Part shown: positions 1-41,358 of the stretch, piece after piece
Position numbering within the stretch: the stretch's first letter is position 1
Layout: the number at the start of each line of letters is the position of its first letter
IMG/VR virus record: IMGVR_UViG_2740892232_000004
Origin: a virus
Lineage: Duplodnaviria; Heunggongvirae; Uroviricota; Caudoviricetes
Strand: one strand, 5' to 3'
DNA length: 41,358 bases
Position numbers and translations under genes: made by a program
Notes under the pieces: generated by a model
Database searches by the model: none
Told to the model about the DNA's origin: nothing
Seen by the model: only the letters and a program-made list of their open reading frames with translations

Positions 1-516
1 ATGAAATTTAAAAAATGTCTTCTGCCTGTGGCAATGTTAGCGTCATTCACTCTGGCAGGATGCCAGTCAAATGCTGATGATCATGCCGCCGATGTTTATC
101 AAACCGATCAACTGAATACCAAACAAGAAACTAAAACCGTTAATATTATTTCCATTCTTCCCGCAAAAGTTGCCGTAGACAACTCCCAAAATAAACGAAA
201 TGCACAAGCCTTCGGCGCGCTTATTGGTGCAGTCGCTGGCGGTGTAATCGGCCACAACGTGGGGTCTGGCAGCAATTCCGGAACGACGGCAGGTGCAGTT
301 GGCGGCGGAGCTGTTGGCGCGGCAGCGGGTTCTATGGTGAATGATAAAACCTTAGTGGAAGGTGTTTCTCTAACGTATAAGGAAGGCACCAAAGTGTATA
401 CCTCCACCCAGGTGGGTAAAGAGTGCCAGTTTACGACAGGTTTAGCCGTTGTTATTACCACGACGTATAACGAAACGCGTATTCAGCCAAATACCAAATG
501 TCCTGAAAAGAGCTAA
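1..516 (+). CDS. Lipoprotein with Gly/Ala-rich glycine-zipper-like segment
   Basis: Signal peptide ending in lipobox LAGC; GxxxG-rich stretch (GALIGAVAGGVIGHNVG...); complete ORF starting at window position 1. Confidence 0.6.
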   Translation: MKFKKCLLPVAMLASFTLAGCQSNADDHAADVYQTDQLNTKQETKTVNIISILPAKVAVDNSQNKRNAQAFGALIGAVAGGVIGHNVGSGSNSGTTAGAVGGGAVGAAAGSMVNDKTLVEGVSLTYKEGTKVYTSTQVGKECQFTTGLAVVITTTYNETRIQPNTKCPEKS

Positions 517-531
517 TAATCAGGAGGAGTC

Positions 532-1071
532 ATGAAGAAAGTTTTTCTTTGCGCCATCTTAGCCTCCTTAAGCTATCCGGCTATCGCCTCATCATTGCAG
601 GATCAACTCTCGGCTGTCGCAGAAGCGGAACAGCAAGGTAAAAATGAAGAGCAAAGGCAGCATGACGAATGGGTCGCGGAGCGCAACAGGGAAATCCAGC
701 AAGAGAAGCAACGTCGCGCAAACGCCCAGGCCGCGGCTAATAAAAGAGCGGCAACGGCAGCAGCGAATAAGAAAGCTCGTCAGGATAAACTGGACGCCGA
801 AGCCACTGCGGACAAAAAACGCGATCAAAGTTATGAAGATGAGCTACGCAGCTTAGAGATTCAGAAACAAAAACTGGCGCTGGCGAAAGAAGAAGCCCGC
901 GTTAAGCGAGAAAACGAATTTATCGATCAGGAACTGAAGCACAAAGCTGCGCAAACCGATGTGGTGCAATCTGAAGCTGACGCAAACAGAAATATGACTG
1001 AAGGCGGTCGCGATCTGATGAAAAGCGTGGGCAAAGCAGAAGAGAATAAATCAGATAGCTGGTTTAATTAA
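532..1071 (+). CDS. Secreted/periplasmic coiled-coil protein, unknown function
   Basis: AGGAGG-like RBS before ATG; N-terminal signal peptide (…SYPAIA); K/E/Q/A-rich helical composition. Confidence 0.55.
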   Translation: MKKVFLCAILASLSYPAIASSLQDQLSAVAEAEQQGKNEEQRQHDEWVAERNREIQQEKQRRANAQAAANKRAATAAANKKARQDKLDAEATADKKRDQSYEDELRSLEIQKQKLALAKEEARVKRENEFIDQELKHKAAQTDVVQSEADANRNMTEGGRDLMKSVGKAEENKSDSWFN

Positions 1072-1110
1072 TCGATGTTAGTAACTTCAATCCTATGATT
1101 CGTGAGTATA

Positions 1111-1142
1111 AAAAACCCTCTGTAGTAACAGAGGGTTTTGTT
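1111..1142. terminator. Bidirectional rho-independent terminator between convergent lipoprotein genes and Rz
   Basis: 9-bp stem AACCCTCTG/CAGAGGGTT with 6-nt loop, flanked by an A-run upstream and T-run downstream. Confidence 0.6.
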
Positions 1143-1288
1143 CATTCATAGTGCAGAGTCAAATCATTCCCACTCAATTATTTACGATAACCATAACCAA
1201 TTGAGTGATAACATTTTTCCAAATCTCAATTTTTCCCGTACCGTTTTATATACCGTCACCGGAAATCAGTACCATGAAAAATGCCATG

Positions 1289-1771
1289 CTATCTGGTCAA
1301 AGTGTCGTACTGTTTTTCGCAGACTCTTCCGGCTTCGGCTGCCCGGTCAGCATACTCTGCCAGTTGTCTGTTTCTCTCGAGAGATTTGCTGAGCACGTCG
1401 GCAAGCAAAACTCCGGTGTCTGCGGCTGACGACCCAGCGCCGACAATGGCGTTATACTGCCTGAGCTGCTCACGGATGGCAAAGAGTTGTTGCTGCAACC
1501 GGCCAGCGCTAGCGGCAGCATCAAGAGCATCATTGCGCGCCTGGTCGATCCTCTGCTGAGCTTCACGTTCATTGGTCACTTTCTCCTGTTCGTAGTACTG
1601 ACGAACTTTGTCTTCTTCGGCTTTGCGGTCTTCTTCCGCCTGAGCATACCCGGCATCGTACTGGCGACTGCCGTGTATATTCCAGGCAACCACTCCTGAT
1701 ATGACCAGAACAGCAAGCACTGCCACGATAAGAAACTGTTTCCAGTATGCTTTTACGAATGCCCAGATCAT
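1289..1771 (-). CDS. i-spanin (Rz-like) lysis protein
   Basis: N-terminal TM helix then long coiled-coil region; start overlaps endolysin stop; contains out-of-frame embedded lipoprotein ORF. Confidence 0.75.
1297..1533 (-). CDS. o-spanin (Rz1-like) lipoprotein embedded in Rz in a different frame
   Basis: ORF inside Rz with signal peptide and lipobox LALAGC, Pro-rich mature part; start taken at the internal Met pair (MMLLML…). Confidence 0.6.
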   Translation of the reverse strand: MMLLMLPLALAGCSNNSLPSVSSSGSITPLSALGRQPQTPEFCLPTCSANLSRETDNWQSMLTGQPKPEESAKNSTTL

Positions 1772-2397
1772 ACCGCCAGCACCTTACTGGCAGTGATGTA
1801 CCGCGCTCGCCGGTCGTCGATGCCGTTCCGGCCACCATTGATAATCAGAGTTACACGTGCAATATCGCCGGTATACTTCATGCATCCTTTGCTGGCGAAG
1901 AACCACGCCGCGCTACGAGCCGCATATTCGTCCTGCGCCAGCAGTTCAGGGCTCTCCAGCAGGTCAACCTTCAGACCGTTTCCGCAATCACGATAGTTAT
2001 TCAAACCGGTAATCTGGATAAGTCCGCGCCCTCGGTAATTCCAGCCATCACCAGGGGCATTGTTCCCCATGCGTTTGCTGTATACCAGATTTGCGATCGC
2101 GCGCTGGCGCTCAAGTGGCAATGGTGGTTCACCAGCACGGCGCCCCAGTGCATTAGCCTGCCCCTGAGTGAGACGCCCAGCCCGAACGAAGTTAGCCAGT
2201 CCGCTGACACTGTAGTTGAAATTCTCCTGCAACCTGGTGAAGCCCCCAGACTCATGCCCGACTTGAGCAATAAACATTGCCTGATCTTCTGCTTTGCTGA
2301 TACCAAACTCTTTCATCGCAGAAGTTATATGCGAGAACCAGCGTGCGGCCAGTGCCTCGCTGATACCAGCAGCTCGCTGGAATTGTTTAATCTCCAT
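1768..2397 (-). CDS. Endolysin, glycoside hydrolase family 19 (chitinase-like) type
   Basis: Start at internal Met ([11 protein letters not shown]…); motifs [24 protein letters not shown] match what I recall of GH19 endolysins of epsilon15-like Salmonella phages. Confidence 0.8.
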
Positions 2398-2695
2398 GTT
2401 TAGACCTCGATACTTTAAAAATTTGAACGACGTTACCGCGCGTTTTAATAACCGCAGCCAGCATGACAGCGTTGATAATGACCTCAGATAAATCCACAGC
2501 CATTGGCGTACGTAACCAGATTGCATAGGCGACTCGAACAGGAATACTGGCCGCAGCAACAATCAGGAAATAAGCAAGCCATCCTCCCCACCTTCGATGT
2601 TGAGAGCCGTTACGCCGGAATGTGACAACGCGAATTGCTATGCCAGTGCAAATAACTGCATTGGTGATAAGCAAAAAAAACTCATGCGTTACCAT
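2387..2695 (-). CDS. Lysis-cassette membrane protein (holin/antiholin-like, 2 predicted TM segments)
   Basis: ATG with GGGGAGAA RBS; hydrophobic segments; overlaps holin stop and endolysin start. Confidence 0.55.
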
Positions 2696-3086
2696 CGTCT
2701 TTTCTCCCCGGAATTAACTCGCGTGGATTATCGGAACGGTGATAGAGCCATATACCAATACGCACAGCGACAATTGCTGACACGAATGCGCCTGCAGAGA
2801 AAACAATCCCTTTTTCAAAAGAGTCCTGCGTGATGGTAGGGATCAGGCTGGCTATGCCGATAAGAATTGATGCTGCTGGTTTGTAAAAGAGAAGGCCGCA
2901 AAGAAAGCTGAGCATCGACAGGAGCACCCGGCGACGGATGGGGTACTCTACTGCAGAGGTAACAAAAATTACCGCCCCAGCCAAAGCCCCTAAAGCAACC
3001 TCCGGAGGGGCACCTGCAATAACCGCAGCAAGAGAACTAAAACTAAGCAACTGATTTAATTGCTCACTTGTTACTTGAGCAGACAT
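2682..3086 (-). CDS. Holin-like membrane protein
   Basis: 134 aa, multiple hydrophobic helices, first gene of the lysis cassette upstream of endolysin. Confidence 0.6.
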   Translation of the reverse strand: MSAQVTSEQLNQLLSFSSLAAVIAGAPPEVALGALAGAVIFVTSAVEYPIRRRVLLSMLSFLCGLLFYKPAASILIGIASLIPTITQDSFEKGIVFSAGAFVSAIVAVRIGIWLYHRSDNPRELIPGRKDDGNA

Positions 3087-3367
3087 ACTTTCTCCTGTTT
3101 ACTATCTATAAGCCAGTCAATTATTGATGACTAAACCCGCATAGTAAACCATATATGAATCATTATTGTTCCATATCATATATCTCAATAAAAGTACTAA
3201 TGATTTTACAGAACGAGCCAGCAGAGTGGGGGCAGTTGTACAGGAACCATAGACTTAATTTTGTATTTAATAATGCTATGGTGTAATAAACCTGAACATG
3301 TATTTAAAATACGTACTGATTCATGATAGAATTCAAAGATAACTTTTCACAAACTCCGTTTTTGATA

Positions 3368-3394
3368 CCCGCAAAATATTGCGGGCTTTTTTTT
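3368..3394 (+). terminator. Hairpin plus T-run (plus-strand terminator-like) overlapping tailspike stop
   Basis: CCCGCAA-AATA-TTGCGGG followed by T8 on the plus strand; no T-run on the minus strand. Confidence 0.35.
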
Positions 3395-6300
3395 AACGTT
3401 CTTCCAGAGACTGAATCCGCTCTTTTATCTTATCCATTTCTCTGCGCTGCCATGCTGCCTCGATATAGAATAAGAGATCAGGTCTGACCCCCCATCTAGA
3501 TCCTGCTGGCGTTATTTCAACGCGCTCAATGATGTCTTCCATTACCATCACTGGATTATCATCCTCATCAACAATGATGCTCCCGTCATTATCAGTCAGC
3601 GGCATTTCCCTTTGGCCAGTAATGACGTCATCATATACTGCGGGATAATCGTCATAGCAAAGAAAGGCATAGCGGCATGTTGTGCTTTCTTCTTCCATGA
3701 GTCCGTGAGAAATAAGAACATCACGAAGTTGCTGCGCGATTACACCATGATGTATCCTCGCCCCTTCTTCCCCCTTTATAGCGACAGCGTTCAGCCATTT
3801 ATAAGCGATATACCTGACGTCACCCCAGGCATCCAGCAATGCTTCGTCAGGAGAGACCGGCTCTGTCTTTAATGTTCCGTCACTGGTAACCACAGGATTG
3901 GAGCCAAGATAAACTGTCGAGAACCTGTTTCCCGGACCACCAAGAGCATTTACATTATCAAGATAAGGTTTAACATCTCCGTTCTCAAAAAGATGTTCGA
4001 GTGCGTTATATACCGCGCGACGTGGAGTACTGCTTCCGGAACCATGCAACGTTATCATTGCACCATCTGCTGAAGACGTTGTTTCACCGCCGCTAACGAT
4101 TAATCTCTGAGCGGTAACATCATCAGACGGTACTTTCTTCGCAATAATGGCGTAATTACCCTCAAGTTTGACTTCCGCGCGAACTTGTCCTGATGTACCT
4201 GCATGGACAGTCAGTGACTGGACGGCAACATCATCTGTGAAATCAACGGGTACAGGAACCGTCCTCACGCCTGACGTCGACATAAAAGTAGGAAGCGTTC
4301 TGTTAGGAGTGGCTCCGTAGACAAAATCCCTTGAAACAAATTCTTCCTGTTTAATTTTCACCCTGAAACAATACAAATCAGCCGGGTGACCATCGTGAAC
4401 ATAAGGATATTTTCTGTTGTTATCCCCTATGCTCCATGGGTTTAGAAAGTCTTCCCCACCGAAAATGTAGTACAGCCAGTTGTCTTTGATACAAACTGAA
4501 CCAACACCAACTGCAGAGTTAACTATTCCGCCCTGATAAATCTGATCAGTAACATTAACCCACTCTACATTATCCAGACTCCACTCATTGACGTTAACTC
4601 TGGTCATAAATGTTCTTGGATAATTTCCTGCATAACGGTTATCAGGTTCTCCTCCTTCCCACTCACCAAATGCGCGCTCACTGCCAAAAATAATCAGCTC
4701 ATCGCCAACTTTGGCAAAAGGAAGGTTTGAGTGATGAACATTATTTGGGAAGCGAAGAGAATTCCATGATGTACCTAAATCAGAGCTTCTGTGCAATGAA
4801 CTACCGGGTTGAGTACTTAATGTCCCCCTGGTCGTCAGATACAGAATGCCATCATAATATTTTACACATGGCTCAGATGCATTCGCCTCATATTCTGCAG
4901 GTATGCGTCTGCGAACAAAGCTACCAGGAGAACCGAAAGCATCAGAGAAATAGAGTATCCCAAGCTCGCGTGGACCAATATCACCATTATGGTAGCCAAC
5001 AGCAAAACTGTTATCGCTAATCGTCGCAAAACTGTGAATCTCAGTAACAGGAGTGCTTCCGTCAACAAAAGAAGGAATAGTTCCAAGACTGGTTTTTCTC
5101 CATGGTGACGAGTGAAATGATGTACCAAAACTCCAGTATCTACCCTCGTTATTCTGATCCACATCCTGGGTATTTTGCGTCGTAACTGTAAAAGTATTTT
5201 TATCAATAACAGTAGTCACCGTCATATTCCCGGTAACACCTGTAACACCAGAGTTTGAGAAGTTGACAAAATCACCAGCAAATAATCCGTGATCAGTAAT
5301 GCGAATATAAGCGACTTGCTGATTTGCTGCTTTCGTTATACCACCATAAGCGCGAAGGCTGCGACTCATTGGGCGATCCCACAACTCTGCAACCTGCAGT
5401 TTATTTCCGCTCACGGTCCGCGTCTCAATTACAGCAAAAAGGCGATTTCTGACAACCCCCATACTCATGCAGTGATAGTTAACTGTGGGATAGTTTTCAT
5501 GTAAATCTGTAAGCCATTCCGGCGTTGTCCAGGTCTTCCCGTCATCTCCTGAGCGAACCCATGCAACATGGAGGTTATTTACACCATGGCGGTCTCCAGC
5601 CATAAAAGGCGCATAGATGACATTGTCATATACAAACGTTTTATCCTGCGTCCAGGCGTTGTACCACGGTGTATCTGTAATTTTAAATAACTCTCCCTGG
5701 ATAAAATCTTCAGAAGCATAAAAAAGAGGCTGGCCCGGTATTCTCTCAAATAAAAAACGAGCATTTTTAAATCGACTGACATCCGGAAGAGTTGATACTT
5801 TAAAAGTAAGCCCTAATCCGTCAATTTTATAACCTGGAGATGAGGCTTCAAGGCACGCGCTTATTGCAGTGGAATCGTCATTTATACCATCACCAACAGC
5901 TCCAAAATCTTTGGGGCTAATAGCATCACGCATTTTATCCTGGAACGTTCGGTACACAGCCCCAGAACCATACTGAATAAACCAACCAAAACCACCAACA
6001 ACCCCGGCGATTGCAGCATCGACATAATTACGCATTGAGCGATTATTTACAGCGTCCTGCTCAAATGATGGATCTGCAAGGTTAGAAATTTTGTTTTGCT
6101 TTGCATCGTAATATTTTGCAAGCAAAGATGGTTTCATCAATGCACGTCTGAACCACCCAAAACATTGCTGGATCAGCATCGTCAGGTAGTCAAAGGCATC
6201 TTCATGCACTTCGGGGAAAAATTTTCCCTGATTGCGAAGGTCTGTCTCCTGCACTACATCAAGCACACGATCTATCGTAATTCGCCATCCAGTAGCAAGC

Positions 6301-6512
6301 GGAGACGGAAGAACCACAGAACCGCCACTATAAGTGCCCGCCCCAGTTACCGTATAACCGGTATCCAGAACCAATTCTGTTACGTTTCCGTTCAGGTCAG
6401 ACACCTGAACAACCAGGTCTGATTTTCTGAAAATTCGAAAAGTATACGGAAACGATGTCGTAACGCCGTTACCGGTGTATTCGTTGTGGTCAACTTCGGT
6501 TGAGACCGTCAT
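3393..6512 (-). CDS. Tailspike/tail fibre: N-terminal particle-binding domain, central domain with sialidase-type Asp-box motifs, C-terminal intramolecular-chaperone (peptidase S74-like) domain
   Basis: 1039 aa; GGAGAT RBS; Asp-box-like SGDDGKTW and SSDLGTSW; C-terminal …TSDGTLK… region typical of auto-cleaving chaperone domains of endosialidases/tail fibres. Confidence 0.75.
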   Translation of the reverse strand: MTVSTEVDHNEYTGNGVTTSFPYTFRIFRKSDLVVQVSDLNGNVTELVLDTGYTVTGAGTYSGGSVVLPSPLATGWRITIDRVLDVVQETDLRNQGKFFPEVHEDAFDYLTMLIQQCFGWFRRALMKPSLLAKYYDAKQNKISNLADPSFEQDAVNNRSMRNYVDAAIAGVVGGFGWFIQYGSGAVYRTFQDKMRDAISPKDFGAVGDGINDDSTAISACLEASSPGYKIDGLGLTFKVSTLPDVSRFKNARFLFERIPGQPLFYASEDFIQGELFKITDTPWYNAWTQDKTFVYDNVIYAPFMAGDRHGVNNLHVAWVRSGDDGKTWTTPEWLTDLHENYPTVNYHCMSMGVVRNRLFAVIETRTVSGNKLQVAELWDRPMSRSLRAYGGITKAANQQVAYIRITDHGLFAGDFVNFSNSGVTGVTGNMTVTTVIDKNTFTVTTQNTQDVDQNNEGRYWSFGTSFHSSPWRKTSLGTIPSFVDGSTPVTEIHSFATISDNSFAVGYHNGDIGPRELGILYFSDAFGSPGSFVRRRIPAEYEANASEPCVKYYDGILYLTTRGTLSTQPGSSLHRSSDLGTSWNSLRFPNNVHHSNLPFAKVGDELIIFGSERAFGEWEGGEPDNRYAGNYPRTFMTRVNVNEWSLDNVEWVNVTDQIYQGGIVNSAVGVGSVCIKDNWLYYIFGGEDFLNPWSIGDNNRKYPYVHDGHPADLYCFRVKIKQEEFVSRDFVYGATPNRTLPTFMSTSGVRTVPVPVDFTDDVAVQSLTVHAGTSGQVRAEVKLEGNYAIIAKKVPSDDVTAQRLIVSGGETTSSADGAMITLHGSGSSTPRRAVYNALEHLFENGDVKPYLDNVNALGGPGNRFSTVYLGSNPVVTSDGTLKTEPVSPDEALLDAWGDVRYIAYKWLNAVAIKGEEGARIHHGVIAQQLRDVLISHGLMEEESTTCRYAFLCYDDYPAVYDDVITGQREMPLTDNDGSIIVDEDDNPVMVMEDIIERVEITPAGSRWGVRPDLLFYIEAAWQRREMDKIKERIQSLEER

Positions 6513-6615
6513 GTTAAATCTCCAGATAGTCGCAGCACCCGTTGCGCCGCATATCTGGTTATTCTATTACCTGGAAAACCACATATGGATAGAAAGGCTG
6601 TAAATACGAATAGAT

Positions 6616-6632
6616 ATTACCTTTCAGGTAAT
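6616..6632. repeat. Palindromic operator-like motif ATTACCT-TTC-AGGTAAT (copy 1)
   Basis: Perfect 7-3-7 inverted repeat in the intergenic region between tailspike start and the LexA-box gene; an ATTACCT half-site also at 6566-6572. Confidence 0.55.
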
Positions 6633-6668
6633 TTGCAAAACGTGCTGGATAGCAAACAAATTATTTGA

Positions 6669-6688
6669 TACTGTATAAATATACAGTT
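6669..6688 (+). promoter_or_regulatory. LexA (SOS) box
   Basis: TACTGTATAAATATACAGTT = CTGT-N8-ACAG with AT-rich spacer, overlapping a TATAAA-like -10; about 20 nt upstream of the ATG at 6708. Confidence 0.7.
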
Positions 6689-6707
6689 ATTGCATGGAGA
6701 AGATAAG

Positions 6708-6965
6708 ATGCAGCAGTATCACTATCCACTGGAAGACGGATTTACCGAAAGGATTCACACGCCGGGAGGCGTCAGGTCACTGGTGGAGGGATCGCACTTG
6801 ATGAAATTACTCCGGGATCTCGATAAGGATGGATTTAATGTCGATGGCCCACTTGCCGAACTGACTGCACTGATTAACTACGTCACCAGCTCACAGATGT
6901 CTATGCAGGATCTGCAAACACATCTCGACTATTGTGCCGAACAATTACGAAAACAAACCCGGTAA
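6708..6965 (+). CDS. Small SOS-regulated antirepressor candidate (stand-alone copy of the BRO-N protein C-terminal domain)
   Basis: ATG with GGAGAAG RBS; residues ~9-80 align to the C-terminal 75 aa of the 8114-8824 protein (shared …PLxxG…IH[ST]PxGV…LMxLL…DG…AELT…DxQTH…Y). Confidence 0.6.
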   Translation: MQQYHYPLEDGFTERIHTPGGVRSLVEGSHLMKLLRDLDKDGFNVDGPLAELTALINYVTSSQMSMQDLQTHLDYCAEQLRKQTR

Positions 6966-6987
6966 ATTTAAAGGCCGCAAGAGCGGC

Positions 6988-7716
6988 CTATCGTTTCGCT
7001 TTGTGCTCGTCCCAGCACGTTTTGCACCATGCCATTAAGCCGTCCGCATTTTGATTATTAGGGTAAAAGCTGGTCCGTTTTCTGCGGACATTACAAATTG
7101 GGCACCACTTCATATGGCGTGTATTCTTTGGGCCATCGAGACACCTTGCACACCACTTAGTCAATCCATCTGGATTTTTTGACGATTTCCGGAATTTGTC
7201 ATATGGAAGGTTTATTCTGCATCGCAAACACTGCTTGCGGCCACTTGAAACTCTGTTAGCTGATTCTTCTTTTGGCGGCGATACAGAAGGTATTCTTGCT
7301 GGCTCTGATACTGCCTGAGGTGCTTTTTTAGATGACTGAGACGATATGTCATCACCAGGGAATCTTCCATGATATGCCGGACGCATTGATACTCCAGGTG
7401 GAAGCTCAGCTGTAAACGGCTTTGGCTGAATCAGTTGCCTCTCTTTTGCTAACTCCTGCTGTTTACAATATGTCTGGATTACCGCACTATCATAAGCAGG
7501 AGGTGCGGAAATATTAGGCGCATTACCTCCAGTTTTTTGAAACTGAGTAGAGGTGTGTTCTATCACCTGTGTACGATTAATCGTTATCTCCCCATCTTCG
7601 GTCTTTATCGTTTTGTTATGATTAACGACCGTACGATCAGAGATCTTAGTCTTGTTCTGGTTGATAACGTAAATAATCACCGCAACCACACCAACAACTA
7701 TCCAGAAAACTTCCAT
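6988..7716 (-). CDS. Membrane-anchored protein with tandem CxxC zinc-ribbon repeats
   Basis: N-terminal TM helix, S/P-rich linker, C-terminal four CxxC pairs with repeated …DGLxxWCxxC; GAGGAAAA RBS. Confidence 0.6.
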   Translation of the reverse strand: MEVFWIVVGVVAVIIYVINQNKTKISDRTVVNHNKTIKTEDGEITINRTQVIEHTSTQFQKTGGNAPNISAPPAYDSAVIQTYCKQQELAKERQLIQPKPFTAELPPGVSMRPAYHGRFPGDDISSQSSKKAPQAVSEPARIPSVSPPKEESANRVSSGRKQCLRCRINLPYDKFRKSSKNPDGLTKWCARCLDGPKNTRHMKWCPICNVRRKRTSFYPNNQNADGLMAWCKTCWDEHKAKR

Positions 7717-7735
7717 TGCTTTTCCTCACAATAAC

Positions 7736-7752
7736 ATTACCTTAAAGGTAAT
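7736..7752. repeat. Palindromic motif ATTACCT-TAA-AGGTAAT (copy 2)
   Basis: Perfect inverted repeat 19 nt upstream of the ATG of the 6988-7716 gene. Confidence 0.55.
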
Positions 7753-7828
7753 ATCTTGCTTTCAGGTGATCAAGCGTTAAACGCCACCAACCAAATACGG
7801 TTGATTTTGATATTTCTCCGCGTTTATC

Positions 7829-7845
7829 ATTACCTTTGCGGTAAA
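7829..7845. repeat. Palindromic motif ATTACCT-TTG-CGGTAAA (copy 3, degenerate right arm)
   Basis: TTACC-N5-GGTAA core conserved; TTGATA -35-like hexamer about 17 bp upstream. Confidence 0.45.
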
Positions 7846-7935
7846 TTTACATCGCACTCCTCTTGTGCCATAGTAATCGGGCACTGGCAAAATCCAGTGC
7901 CGGGATTGGCGTCCCGGGTTACTAAGTGGCGCATA

Positions 7936-7957
7936 CCACGCCAGACGTGGTTTTTTT
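7936..7957 (+). terminator. Rho-independent terminator-like hairpin in a noncoding region
   Basis: CCACG-CCAGA-CGTGG followed by T7; preceded by a 9-bp stem-loop (GGCACTGG…CCAGTGCC) at about 7879-7902. Confidence 0.45.
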
Positions 7958-8113
7958 ATGCGTTAAGCACAGCTATATCCGAATTATGGTGGGCTGGGCA
8001 GGGGTCCGAAAGGACGCCGGTACCACTTAGGCCGGTACGCCAACCTTGTCCAGTTCACCACCAGTAATTGGCGTTGCGGTGGTGATTAAAATCACTAAGT
8101 GGAGATAACCACC

Positions 8114-8824
8114 ATGGCTAATGCTCAAACTTCCATCTTCAAATTTGAATCTGTTAACCCTATCCGTTCCATCATTATCGATGGCCAACCATGGTTTGTA
8201 GCCCAAGACGTTTGTAGTGCGCTGCGTATCCAAAACGTCACCCAAGCACTTGAAAAACTGGATGATGATGAAAGGTCTATGTTCAACATAGGGCATGAAC
8301 ATCGTGCAATTTTTGACAGCCGAGTAAAAGAGATCAACATCATCTCCGAGTCAGGCCTCTACACACTGATCCTCCGCTGCCGCGACGCAGTGACACCAGG
8401 CACTATCCCCTACCGCTTTCGTAAATGGGTTACGGGTGAGGTTCTTCCTCAGATCCGCCGCACCGGAAGCTACATTAAAAACTCGCTCCCGCAGGAAGAA
8501 CGCATAAAGATGGTTGCCGACCAGGTGGCCAACGCCACGGCGTCAGCAGTAATGCAGGCGATGAAGATAGAGAACAAAACCTACAGCGCCCCACTGAATC
8601 CCGGCTACCGCAGCCTGATTCATTCGCCGTCTGGTGTTCTCGGCCTGACGGAGAACTCACTGCTGATGAATCTGCTGAACCAGTTACAGGACGACGGGCA
8701 CGACGTATCGGGCGCGGCGGCGGAGCTGACCACCATGTTCTGCTACATCGTCGGTGTGAGCAAATGCCTGCGTGATATCCAGACCCACGCGGAATACATC
8801 AACGACAAGGCAGGGTTCTTCTGA
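8114..8824 (+). CDS. BRO-N domain antirepressor-like protein
   Basis: ATG with GGAG RBS; N-terminal BRO-N-like segment (FVAQDVCSAL…ISESGLYTLILR…FRKWV); C-terminal domain homologous to the 6708-6965 product. Confidence 0.75.
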   Translation: MANAQTSIFKFESVNPIRSIIIDGQPWFVAQDVCSALRIQNVTQALEKLDDDERSMFNIGHEHRAIFDSRVKEINIISESGLYTLILRCRDAVTPGTIPYRFRKWVTGEVLPQIRRTGSYIKNSLPQEERIKMVADQVANATASAVMQAMKIENKTYSAPLNPGYRSLIHSPSGVLGLTENSLLMNLLNQLQDDGHDVSGAAAELTTMFCYIVGVSKCLRDIQTHAEYINDKAGFF

Positions 8825-8895
8825 CGGGCGGTGGCACAGGGATGTGCCTTTAAATAATTCTGTACAGATTGCAGACTGTGGGTGAATAGCGTACT

Positions 8896-8912
8896 ATTAC
8901 CTTAAAGGTAAA
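8896..8912. repeat. Palindromic motif ATTACCT-TAA-AGGTAAA (copy 4)
   Basis: Directly abuts the AGGAGG RBS of the 8924 ORF. Confidence 0.5.
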
Positions 8913-8923
8913 GGAGGCGCGAT

Positions 8924-9091
8924 ATGACAGCGTTGAAAAATCGTACTCAGCACAATGAACAAGCCAAGCAATGCTGGGATGTCATTGGAAAAGTTATGCT
9001 TGGCCGCGCAAGCAAAGAGCGCGACAAGGATATGGTTTACCAGACAGGAACATCTTTCAGCGACTTCAAGGCGGCATTTCGCTCCAAATAG
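8924..9091 (+). CDS. Small hydrophilic protein (55 aa), unknown function
   Basis: Strong AGGAGG RBS 6 nt before ATG; below the ORF-track size cutoff; first gene of a two-gene cassette. Confidence 0.45.
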   Translation: MTALKNRTQHNEQAKQCWDVIGKVMLGRASKERDKDMVYQTGTSFSDFKAAFRSK

Positions 9092-9111
9092 AAGCACATC
9101 AGGAGTTTTCC

Positions 9112-9552
9112 TTGAAGTTTAACATTAGAATATCTAATAGTTTTCTACATGGGGAAAGCAACACCCCTTTCGCTGTAGACGGACCTTTCCTTACTGATGA
9201 TGAAATAAAAATCATACAAAGTTTTTTAGAGGATGTTGCCAATGGAAGGGCGCTTGTTGGAAAAAACAAGCCCTCGTGGGTTGATGATAACCATGATAAA
9301 ATTCCCGGCTCAGACAATTATGAGCAAGAGAATTATTGGCATTATCATTGTGGGCCAACATGGTATCCAAACACATTTAAGAATTATACCATTAACTTAA
9401 ATTTCAACCCTGGCGGAAGGCATTCTAATGAATGCATTCATTATGCAAAAAATGATAATGAAATTGTCATTGTTGGATTTTCAAGAGAACACATACCTTT
9501 CCTTTCATCAGATGGAAACAACAATCCGCTTTTTAATGATGAAGAAGAATAG
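9112..9552 (+). CDS. AT-rich moron protein (146 aa from proposed TTG start), unknown function
   Basis: Visibly lower GC than flanks; AGGAG 6 nt before TTG; no in-frame ATG except the overlapping one at 8971; N/D-rich product with single CGP and C-H pairs. Confidence 0.5.
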   Translation: MKFNIRISNSFLHGESNTPFAVDGPFLTDDEIKIIQSFLEDVANGRALVGKNKPSWVDDNHDKIPGSDNYEQENYWHYHCGPTWYPNTFKNYTINLNFNPGGRHSNECIHYAKNDNEIVIVGFSREHIPFLSSDGNNNPLFNDEEE

Positions 9553-9573
9553 CCCGCGCTGCGGGCTTTTTTG
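9551..9573 (+). terminator. Rho-independent terminator of the moron cassette
   Basis: AGCCCGC-GCT-GCGGGCT followed by T6. Confidence 0.7.
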
Positions 9574-9644
9574 TGGACGAAACAAAAGTCAGTGCTACAC
9601 TCATTGACGCCACATTGAGGTGGCTTATAGATGGAAATTTCACA

Positions 9645-9806
9645 ATGAAAAAAGCATTTGCTGCACTGTTCGTTTTGTTGTCTCTGGTAGCTTCAACTCA
9701 GGCCTTTGCCGGTCGTTGTCAGCACGACAGCGACACTGCTGCTGACGGCTCCCGCTGCGGTGGGCGTTCTGCGGACTCCCGTCCGGGCGGCGGTGGCATT
9801 CGTTAA
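9645..9806 (+). CDS. Small predicted secreted protein (53 aa)
   Basis: Signal-peptide-like N-terminus (MKKAFAALFVLLSLVASTQAFA), Gly-rich mature part with 2 Cys; TTGACG-16-TATAGA promoter-like elements upstream. Confidence 0.3.
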   Translation: MKKAFAALFVLLSLVASTQAFAGRCQHDSDTAADGSRCGGRSADSRPGGGGIR

Positions 9807-26401: not shown

Positions 26402-26478
26402 TCTCAGCGTTGTGGCATTAGCTCAGTTGGACAGAGCAACCGCCTTCTAAGCGGTTGGTCGCAGGTTCGAATCCTGCA
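26402..26478 (+). tRNA. tRNA-Arg (anticodon UCU)
   Basis: Folded by hand: 7-bp acceptor stem GUGGCAU/AUGCCAC, D-arm GCUC…GAGC, anticodon stem ACCGC/GCGGU with loop CUUCUAA, T-arm GCAGG-UUCGAAU-CCUGC, discriminator G, encoded CCA. Confidence 0.85.
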
Positions 26479-26531
26479 TGCCACGCCAGAATCACGCCTA
26501 AGGACCGTGATGCCAGAAGTTCCAGGTGCTT

Positions 26532-40107: not shown

Positions 40108-41358
40108 TTATTCCCCCGCCATCCACTTCTCAAACTTCGACGGGGAGAACGGAATCAGATCCGTATGCTCCCCGTCAATCCATGAATCAATCATATCGGC
40201 CCACTGCTGCAACATGTAGGCGCGCTGTCTGGCGTATTCCGCTTTGTTATATACGGCGCGCACACCTTTCTGCTCATGTGCCAGAGCCTTTTCAATCCAG
40301 TCTGAAGGATAACCAGCCTCATGCAACAACGTACTGGCTGTACGGCGCATATCATGTACAGTGAAGTCCTGAATATGCTCACCATCTTCATTTATTATTT
40401 TCACCGTTCTGTCGATCAGAGAGTTCAGCGCGGCATTAGATAATGGCTTCCGGAAATTGTAACGACCAGGAACCAGATATTCACTTCCACCAGCGCACAT
40501 CTGCAACCCGACCAATATATCCTGTGCCTGTTTAGGCAGGTAAATAACGTGCGCCCGGCTTCCCTTCATGCGGTCTGGAGGAATTGTCCATGTCCATTTT
40601 TTAAAATCTATTTCATCCCACGTTGCATTGGTGAATTCGCCCTTACGAACCATAGTGATAAGCACCAGTTTTAAAGCCATTTTCATAGTGCCCATAGCAC
40701 CAATGGCATCCAGCGTGCGGAAGAACAGGCCAATTTCTTCTGGTGCCAGTGTTCGCTCTCGTGGTTTAAATATGGCGATAGACGAAGGTTTAATGTCAGC
40801 CGCAGGATTAAACAAACCATGACCACGGTCATTGGCGTGACGGTATACGCTACTGATGATCTCCCTGGCCTGCACTGCTGTTGCCCGGCCACCGCGTTCG
40901 ACAATCCGGTCACACAAATCACGAACCATCGATGTGGTAATTTCAGCCATCATTTTATTGCCAAGAACCGGAAGTATGTCACGGTCGATCACCGCCTGTT
41001 TCATTGCGCGGGTACTGTCAGCCAGGATGACGTGTTTCATATAACTGTCGGTATGTACCGCAAACGTCTCGGCACCACGAATCTTTTTGATACCGTCACG
41101 TTTAGCCGCAGCCGGTGACTGGCCTGCTTTAAGCAGCTTCTTTGCAGCAATCAGTTCTTCTCGCGCTTCTGCCAGGCTGATACCGTCACGCCCATACTGC
41201 CCGATTACCAGTGTTTCGCGGCGACCGTTGATACGGTAGTCATAGCGAAACGAGACCGTGCCTGACGTAAGCACAGCTACATACAGCCCGTCACGATCGG
41301 AGACCTTGTACAGTTTGTCCTGCGGCTTGAGGTTTTTTAATTTTGTATCGGTAAGCAC
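40108..41358 (-). CDS. Tyrosine integrase with N-terminal arm-binding domain; 5' end beyond window
   Basis: N-terminal …LTDTKLKNLKP…LYKVSDRDGLYVAV… and C-terminal catalytic region (…HDMRRTAS…; LAHE…); ORF runs to the window edge. Confidence 0.85.
   Translation of the reverse strand: MLTDTKLKNLKPQDKLYKVSDRDGLYVAVLTSGTVSFRYDYRINGRRETLVIGQYGRDGISLAEAREELIAAKKLLKAGQSPAAAKRDGIKKIRGAETFAVHTDSYMKHVILADSTRAMKQAVIDRDILPVLGNKMMAEITTSMVRDLCDRIVERGGRATAVQAREIISSVYRHANDRGHGLFNPAADIKPSSIAIFKPRERTLAPEEIGLFFRTLDAIGAMGTMKMALKLVLITMVRKGEFTNATWDEIDFKKWTWTIPPDRMKGSRAHVIYLPKQAQDILVGLQMCAGGSEYLVPGRYNFRKPLSNAALNSLIDRTVKIINEDGEHIQDFTVHDMRRTASTLLHEAGYPSDWIEKALAHEQKGVRAVYNKAEYARQRAYMLQQWADMIDSWIDGEHTDLIPFSPSKFEKWMAGE

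Follow-up and report, generated by a model that had tools for sequence, protein, structure and literature searches.

An endosialidase tailspike gene that joins a Uetakevirus adaptor to a CUS-3 siaK1-type cassette

The tailspike studied here consists of an N-terminal Uetakevirus adaptor, an endosialidase and a C-terminal chaperone. Its gene is a mosaic of a Uetakevirus adaptor and a siaK1-type cassette. It lies in a window of 41,358 nucleotides, the whole stretch of DNA analysed (IMG/VR record IMGVR_UViG_2740892232_000004). We argue that the product is almost certainly the receptor-binding and receptor-destroying spike of a temperate, phiV10/epsilon15-like podovirus of K1-encapsulated E. coli. 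No feature of the sequence argues against an endosialidase tailspike. The sequence analysis shows how the domains are arranged, which catalytic and cleavage residues are present, that the gene is of mosaic origin and that it sits in a prophage. The activity, self-cleavage and K1 specificity of the window copy are predicted from its identity to SiaK1 over aa 234-876 and from the fact that ZX5 has a K1 host.

Architecture of the tailspike

The complete gene occupies 3393..6512 on the minus strand and codes from ATG to stop for 1039 aa. The plus-strand frame of this interval is riddled with stops, which rules out a plus-strand reading and puts the gene on the minus strand. GGAG is found 7 nt 5' of the ATG. 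The sequence-only reading described a 1039-aa tailspike with the motifs SGDDGKTW, SSDLGTSW and TSDGTLK, and the open reading frame and its translation contain all of them. That reading did not give the strand.

Given its Pfam modules and its identity to the K1F enzyme, the central region can be taken as a true endosialidase (CAZy GH58 type). The earlier claim was of a sialidase-type region with Asp-boxes, and the profile search it called for found all four endosialidase modules far above their cut-offs. All four features are on the minus strand. The N-terminal extension (aa 205-271, 5700..5900) matches the full profile of End_N_terminal (PF12218) with 109.6 bits. Next comes the catalytic domain, a six-bladed beta-propeller (aa 272-721, 4350..5699), where End_beta_propel (PF12217) matches over profile positions 1-367 of 367 with 775 bits against a cut-off of 24 (E 1.2e-233). 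Inside the propeller is a beta-barrel domain (aa 383-465, 5118..5366) that covers the full profile of End_beta_barrel (PF12195) with 154.4 bits. The stalk (aa 722-876, 3885..4349) covers the full profile of End_tail_spike (PF12219) with 260.4 bits.

The best characterised comparison is EndoNF, which is gp17 of the Kayfunavirus K1F (structures 1v0e, 3gvl and 3gw6). The two proteins share fold modules, catalytic residues, Asp-boxes, cleavage site and chaperone. A phmmer search with aa 205-876 against 1v0e/3gvl gives E = 0 and 65.7% identity over 665 residues. The catalytic residues H350, R549, E581, R596 and R647 of K1F are invariant in the alignment, where they correspond to H309, R515, E547, R562 and R613 of the tailspike. 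K1F residues Q330, D331, H527, S528, K585 and N699 are conserved too; the roles of the catalytic and substrate-binding residues are taken from PMC12632334. Asp-box 1 (SGDDGKTW, aa 321-328, 5529..5552, minus strand) aligns with K1F SGDDGQTW, and Asp-box 2 (SSDLGTSW, aa 576-583, 4764..4787, minus strand) with SRDIGQTW, column for column in both cases. At this composition about 0.0007 strict SxDxGxTW motifs would be expected by chance, and about 0.05 of the looser S.D.G..[WFY]; 2 are observed. These Asp-boxes belong to the endosialidase-specific propeller family. The generic exosialidase/BNR family (PF13088), whose score of 17.3 bits falls short of its cut-off of 31.4, was rejected.

One can imagine that the Asp-boxes are chance motifs in a beta-helix, or in a depolymerase of some other specificity. 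Pfam does report a pectate-lyase-like match at aa 201-221, but those 21 residues score 14.3 bits against a cut-off of 27. They are the sole trace of such a domain, and they correspond to the generic DFGAxGDGxxDD motif with which many enzymatic domains of tailspikes begin. With a full-length propeller match, this degree of EndoNF identity, and Asp-boxes and catalytic residues in register, we consider this scenario so improbable as to be negligible. The non-sialidase beta-helix that the sequence-only reading had set against its own proposal is thus excluded at the sequence level by the Pfam matches and the EndoNF identity.

The endosialidase does differ from that of K1F in places. It has a 7-residue insertion, FVDGSTP, at aa 482-488. 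K1F Q853, which contributes to the polysialic-acid binding site of the stalk, is replaced by M819; the active CUS-3 enzyme carries the same M. One substitution is found in the window copy alone: it has A385, and the four copies aligned with it (from CUS-3, ZX5 and APEC O1) have V. This position is not among the known catalytic residues.

The last domain (aa 877-1039, 3396..3884, minus strand) was earlier read as an endosialidase-type chaperone, and that reading holds. Peptidase_S74 (PF13884) matches aa 877-937, directly after the stalk, with 41.4 bits against a cut-off of 22. From S877 to its last residue the chain aligns with 3gw6, the solved structure of the K1F chaperone domain (E 5.9e-73), and the domain is 53.9% identical to that of K1F. 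TSDGTLK (aa 876-882, 3867..3887, minus strand) contains the cleavage dyad, S877 (3882-3884) and K882 (3867-3869), which aligns with K1F S911/K916. The GVIAQ trimerisation motif is conserved at aa 923-927. The roles of this motif and of the Ser-Lys dyad, with Lys five residues after Ser, are described in PMC3742440. T876, at the end of the stalk, is the predicted C-terminus of the mature spike. It aligns with T910, where the K1F crystal construct ends and where the RefSeq mat_peptide boundary of K1F lies (910/911), so the K1F cleavage site T910/S911 corresponds to T876/S877. By its identity to CUS-3 SiaK1, the tailspike would release aa 877-1039 autoproteolytically.

A mosaic gene in a phiV10-like prophage

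The adaptor for virion attachment (aa 1-194, gene nt 1-582, 5931..6512, minus strand) was identified by its identity to phiV10-like tailspikes. Its 582 nt are 98.5% identical to the 'eliminase' tailspike gene of phage EC.W1-9, and the proteins diverge beyond it. More than 20 PHROG tail families match from aa 1 to ~166-205 only, and the N-terminus of Dpo31 in the PDB matches the adaptor as well (E 9.6e-36). The adaptor is common to phiV10-like (Uetakevirus) tailspikes with unrelated enzymatic domains. phiV10 gp25 and other Uetakevirus tailspikes, such as the EC.W1-9 'eliminase', share the adaptor, the locus and the virion scaffold, but their enzymatic domains target O-antigens and are unrelated to endosialidase. 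The ZX5 paper (2022) calls this N-terminal domain a 'T7-like tail fibre'. A Pfam scan with E up to 0.1 finds no T7 tail-fibre family at aa 1-204, and identity to the T7-type adaptor of K1F is only 22%. It is better described as a phiV10-type tailspike N-terminus. K1F is a lytic phage with a T7-type adaptor, whereas the window holds a temperate one with the Uetakevirus type.

The 5' mosaic junction is at gene nt ~701-705. It falls inside the N-terminal extension of the endosialidase, which diverges from CUS-3 up to aa ~234. From there gene nt ~705-3077 (3436..5808, minus strand; megablast and base-level alignment) are nearly identical to CUS-3 siaK1, with 9 mismatches, 99.6% nucleotide identity and sharp edges. 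At the protein level, the catalytic and stalk regions (aa 234-876) are 99.4% identical. SiaK1 (ABQ88383.1) belongs to CUS-3, a P22-like Lederbergvirus prophage of E. coli K1 RS218. It shares propeller, barrel, stalk and chaperone with the window tailspike, at about 99.4% amino acid identity over aa ~235-1025, but its N-terminus is a head-binding domain of the P22 gp9 type rather than a Uetakevirus adaptor, and its last ~14 residues differ.

The window is a Uetakevirus (phiV10/epsilon15-like) prophage integrated between yfgI and guaA. The sequence-only reading had proposed a different phage scaffold, and this one does differ from that of the classical K1 phages. The prophage ends at the attachment core ATTGAGTGGGAATGATT (1162..1178, minus strand), which is identical to the att core published for ZX5. 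Host yfgI, identified from the APEC O1 annotation, adjoins it at 532..1071. Elsewhere the window shares ~97-98% identity with phages of the phiV10 type, a level that its structural genes show against HEMP4, phiv142-3 and phiV10. The tailspike lies between a gp19-like small ORF/antirepressor and the holin-endolysin cassette, in synteny with phiV10-like genomes; both marks of a Uetakevirus tailspike, the N-terminal adaptor and the conserved locus, are therefore found.

It is worth considering whether a defective prophage carries the gene as a relic. Its sequence would be intact, yet the product would never reach virions, or the gene would be kept because it serves the host, for instance in capsule remodelling. 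In favour, the prophage is in its integrated state. At 6513-9700, where accessory genes separate the tail genes from the tailspike, it is unlike ZX5 and APEC O1, and a homologous prophage in strain MS15052 has frameshifted or partial accessory genes. Against this, the tailspike is a full-length ORF with a ribosome-binding site, and long, apparently intact ORFs are seen for all structural, lysis, replication and integrase genes. Conservation of the tailspike gene is at least 99% in 185 genomes. ZX5, whose protein is two residues apart, plaques and lysogenises. We regard a relic as very unlikely.

phiV10 has oac in the slot downstream of the tailspike, but here that slot is empty. A hairpin (3368..3385) stands immediately after the stop codon, and the 306-nt spacer between tailspike and lysis cassette (3087..3392) has no ORF of at least 60 aa. 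In CUS-3 the phase-variable O-acetyltransferase neuO follows siaK1; the window prophage is without neuO. The tandem-repeat scan was empty, with no heptanucleotide repeat, and the annotations of the homologous prophages examined list no acyltransferase. A neuO-like phase-variable repeat or acetyltransferase was rejected on the empty scan and the slot without an ORF. No receptor-modification (superinfection immunity) module comparable to phiV10 oac or CUS-3 neuO was found beside the tailspike.

CUS-3 integrates at argW and the window prophage at guaA. The cassette is at least 99% identical in 253 copies, across P22-like CUS-3 (argW) and phiV10-like (guaA) prophages, which are temperate lineages unrelated to each other. 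This near-identity may come from homologous exchange that still goes on where both prophages reside in one K1 chromosome, bounded by gene ends that are homologous but diverged (nt ~705 and ~3077), with the phiV10-like lineage, which unlike phiV10 or CUS-3 lacks a receptor-modifying gene, avoiding self-adsorption or superinfection by another route. We offer this joint reading tentatively, as plausible but somewhat doubtful.

Relatives, receptor and significance

The same gene is found in ZX5 (vB_EcoP_ZX5, MW722083, Uetakevirus) as ORF7 (QTH80017.1; 99.8% nucleotide identity, 1039 aa, two residues different) and in APEC O1 (RefSeq WP_000218907.1, 1039 aa). Across its full 3120 nt the gene is 99.8-99.9% identical, with 1-2 aa differences for ZX5 and APEC O1, where V stands in place of A385. 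In both it lies upstream of the holin/endolysin cassette, as in the window, and both share the guaA integration site. Among 5426 complete E. coli genomes, 72 carry the gene, and RefSeq names it 'endosialidase catalytic beta-propeller domain-containing protein'. The listed carriers include O1:K1:H7, APEC O1/O18 and CSF isolates (ExPEC). The ZX5 paper (2022) names the same three domains, adaptor, endosialidase and chaperone, and describes an infectious phage from an O87:H52:K1 host that plaques, lysogenises and integrates at guaA. The adaptor-endosialidase fusion has thus already been sequenced, annotated and published, which makes this an ordinary find, and no novelty is supported. The K1F and CUS-3 enzymes have been characterised structurally and biochemically, and RefSeq names the gene in dozens of genomes.

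Capsule genes are absent from the window, so we infer the host K type from matching genomes. The sequence-only reading predicted the host receptor, and K1 polysialic acid fits both the K1 host of ZX5 and the O1:K1/O18 ExPEC carriers. It had proposed a depolymerase of polysialic acid 'or other acidic capsule'. The hedge is unnecessary. The GenBank record of CUS-3 siaK1 carries direct-assay evidence for endo-alpha-sialidase activity (PMID 16689790), and by its 99.4% amino acid identity the window tailspike would probably cleave alpha-2,8-polysialic acid too. The enzyme could instead prefer another sialic-acid polymer, such as O-acetylated polysialic acid or the K92 alternating alpha-2,8/2,9 polymer. 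The enzymes of the temperate clade (CUS-3/ZX5) share only ~58-67% identity with those of lytic K1 phages, and the FVDGSTP insertion and the change of Q853 to M would be in line with such a preference. However, the enzyme with the direct-assay annotation comes from a K1 strain, ZX5 comes from a K1 host, and the listed carriers include O1:K1:H7, O18 and CSF isolates. Another preferred polymer seems to us very unlikely.

The proposed working of the endosialidase tailspike is modelled on the K1F and CUS-3 enzymes. Three chains would assemble, with the chaperone (aa 877-1039) nucleating the folding of the triple-beta-helix stalk. The S877/K882 dyad would then cut before S877 and free the 163-residue chaperone. 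The Uetakevirus-type adaptor (aa 1 to ~194) would attach the mature 876-residue trimer to the tail. The trimer's propeller, with E547, R562, R613, H309 and R515, would cleave alpha-2,8-polysialic acid, so that the virion could tunnel across the K1 capsule and reach the outer membrane.

The gene is one more case of capsule depolymerase modules moving between phage scaffolds. Its practical relevance is to K1-targeting phage therapy and to the use of enzymes that remove the capsule from neonatal meningitis and ExPEC strains.

Domain make-up and catalytic residues of the tailspike

The ORF listing and its translation give one ATG-to-stop frame of 1039 codons at 3393-6512, as the sequence-only reading had it, and the strand is minus. 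The plus-strand reading of 3393-6512 is ruled out by many stops in frame. GGAG lies 7 nt upstream of the ATG, from which gene nucleotides and residues are numbered here. A motif search of the translated minus-strand product confirms all three motifs named in the sequence-only reading: SGDDGKTW at aa 321-328, SSDLGTSW at aa 576-583 and TSDGTLK at aa 876-882. The first two are the Asp-box-like motifs that had been proposed for the central region, and they share alignment columns with two Asp-boxes of the endosialidase of lytic phage K1F (gp17 or EndoNF). A strict Asp-box would be expected by chance about 0.0007 times in a protein of this composition.

The tailspike was searched with Pfam-A profiles, scored against the family cut-offs. 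Every endosialidase-specific module is matched full-length: End_N_terminal at aa 205-271 (109.6 bits), End_beta_propel at aa 272-721 (775 bits, E 1.2e-233), End_beta_barrel at aa 383-465 (154.4 bits), End_tail_spike at aa 722-876 (260.4 bits) and Peptidase_S74, the 'chaperone of endosialidase', at aa 877-937 (41.4 bits, cut-off 22). Two other families, the generic BNR_2 sialidases and a pectate-lyase-like one, each fall below their Pfam cut-offs. Aa 205-876 match the solved EndoNF structures 1v0e and 3gvl with E = 0, and aa 757-1038 match 3gw6, the structure of the K1F C-terminal domain. Both the sialidase propeller and the C-terminal resemblance to an endosialidase chaperone, suspected from sequence alone, are supported by the profiles.

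Against K1F gp17, the crystallised catalytic part (K1F 246-910) is 65.7% identical, the C-terminal domain 53.9% and the N-terminal adaptor only 22%. Deep mutational scanning of K1F identified H350, R549, E581, R596 and R647 as key residues for catalysis or substrate, and found Q330, D331, H527, S528, K585 and N699 to be additional intolerant positions (PMC12632334). All 11 are identical in the tailspike when it is aligned to full-length gp17, the first five corresponding to H309, R515, E547, R562 and R613. A depolymerase of some other specificity is excluded, being contradicted by both the profiles and these residues. By the RefSeq mat_peptide boundaries, T910 is the last residue of the mature K1F chain and S911 the first of the chaperone domain; these align with T876 and S877. 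A serine-lysine dyad makes the autoproteolytic cut and a GVIAQ motif is required for trimerisation (PMC3742440). The aligned counterparts are S877/K882 and aa 923-927.

A mosaic gene and its proposed specificity

In gene nt 1-582 (aa 1-194) the sequence shares 98.5% identity with the beginning of the phage EC.W1-9 tailspike, which past this common start is an unrelated 'eliminase'. More than 20 PHROG tail-protein families match the tailspike in its N-terminal adaptor segment only, and so does the N-terminus of the solved tailspike Dpo31. Since all of these match this segment alone, aa 1-194 is the exchangeable virion-attachment adaptor of phiV10-type tailspikes. The N-terminal domain has been called a 'T7-like tail fibrin' in the Uetakevirus vB_EcoP_ZX5 (PMC9782041). 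Pfam scanning of aa 1-204 (5901-6512) with an E limit of 0.1 brings up no T7 tail-fibre family, and the K1F adaptor, which is of T7 type, is the one with 22% identity; the matches are instead to the Dpo31 N-terminus and the PHROG tail families.

From gene nt ~705 to 3077 (3436-5808) the gene is 99.6% identical, with 9 differing positions, to siaK1 of the P22-like prophage CUS-3. The edges of this cassette are sharp on both sides of the alignment. Beyond them, at 5808-5930 and 3396-3435, in-frame siaK1 homology persists in strongly diverged form: gene nt 601-700 have ~58% nucleotide identity, and the last ~14 codons differ. Possibly the CUS-3 allele replaced the middle of an older, diverged endosialidase fusion, or the replacement ran the other way.

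The CUS-3 record lists endo-alpha-sialidase activity with direct experimental evidence, and we assign K1 specificity to the tailspike because it is nearly identical to that enzyme. K1F lacks the FVDGSTP insertion of 7 residues (aa 482-488) and carries Q853 where the tailspike has M819; the active CUS-3 enzyme has the same insertion and methionine. One can imagine a preference shifted to another sialic-acid polymer. This has little support, as the CUS-3 and ZX5 data speak against it. A non-functional relic is unlikely too, since the ORF is intact and ZX5, whose protein differs by only two residues, is infectious.

We argue that the tailspike almost certainly works as a self-processing enzyme that cleaves polysialic acid. 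Its sequence prerequisites are verified, and the mechanism itself follows published work on K1F and CUS-3. Three chains would associate through their C-terminal domains, which would template the triple-beta-helix stalk. The S877/K882 dyad would then cut before S877 and free the chaperone, and the adaptor would join the mature trimer to the phiV10-type tail. The trimer would bind and endo-cleave alpha-2,8-polysialic acid, letting the virion pass the K1 capsule.

The prophage and its empty receptor-modification slot

The window outside the tailspike belongs to a phiV10/epsilon15-like (Uetakevirus) genome, so the sequence-only reading was right that this endosialidase sits on a different scaffold. 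Window 6513-30000 is ~97-98% identical to phages HEMP4, phiv142-3 and phiV10. Window 1-1071 is host DNA with yfgH and yfgI, by comparison with E. coli APEC O1. The 17-nt att core published for ZX5 occurs exactly once, at 1162-1178, and marks the prophage boundary. The integrase ORF (40108-41358) forms the window's end and adjoins guaA in homologous lysogens. Because the window stops at this gene, the guaA-side junction lies just beyond it.

From 6513 to 9700, where accessory genes separate the tailspike from the tail genes, the window differs from ZX5 and APEC O1. This stretch holds a minus-strand 242-aa ORF (6988-7716) with C-terminal zinc-ribbon/endonuclease VII-like and Lar-like PHROG matches, a plus-strand BRO-N antirepressor (8099-8824) and several ORFs without a family. 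A phage-borne tRNA-Arg (anticodon TCT, 26412-26488) lies between the portal and terminase genes, the same position as in related phiV10-like prophages.

The genes 3' of the tailspike encode a Phage_holin_8-type membrane protein, a 3TM holin, an endolysin-sized ORF (by synteny) and a DUF2514 Rz-like product. Between tailspike and lysis genes phiV10 carries oac, an O-antigen acetyltransferase giving superinfection immunity, and CUS-3 has the capsule O-acetyltransferase neuO after its endosialidase. Here the slot is a 306-nt spacer (3087-3392) with no ORF of at least 60 aa and no repeats. No heptanucleotide repeat or acetyltransferase was seen anywhere in the window, and no acyltransferase is annotated elsewhere in homologous prophages.

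Distribution and possible cassette exchange

The tailspike is already known. Over its whole length the gene is 99.8-99.9% identical to ZX5 ORF7 (MW722083) and to two phage fragments of 2014 that stand in GenBank without annotation, and RefSeq names it 'endosialidase catalytic beta-propeller domain-containing protein'. ZX5 was isolated on an O87:H52:K1 strain and integrates at the guaA 3' end; its ORF7 is described as having a tail-fibre domain at the N-terminus, an endosialidase in the centre and an endosialidase chaperone at the C-terminus (PMC9782041). Of 5426 complete E. coli genomes, 72 contain the gene at full length; APEC O1, APEC O18, O1:K1:H7 strains and CSF isolates are among the carriers. 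When 50,697 phage records were searched at the protein level, endosialidases turned up on many other scaffolds, namely Kayfunavirus K1F, the K1E/K1-5 group, Kagunavirus K1G/K1H, large myoviruses, CUS-3 and also Mannheimia phages, with the temperate CUS-3/ZX5 clade ~58-67% identical to coliphage endosialidases. Another scaffold is therefore neither new nor surprising.

Across 185 genomes the propeller sequence is present at 253 places, always with >=99% identity and at up to four places per genome. K1 E. coli chromosomes often have two or more cassette copies, in CUS-3 (argW) and in a phiV10-like prophage (guaA). APEC O18 has a CUS-3-type copy at argW and a Uetakevirus-type copy ~170 kb away; in the two extracted loci the copies lie at L007:4365-7310 and L008:501-3620. 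When six copies are compared, only the cassette-edge SNPs (nt 729, 780 and 3078-3084) sort by phage scaffold, while interior SNPs do not. Inside the cassette, 1 nt separates the APEC O18 CUS-type copy from the Uetakevirus-type copy that is co-resident with it, but 5 nt separate it from RS218 CUS-3. Since interior SNPs ignore the scaffold that the edge SNPs follow, these few sequences suggest the hypothesis that co-resident prophages exchange the cassette by recombination or gene conversion.
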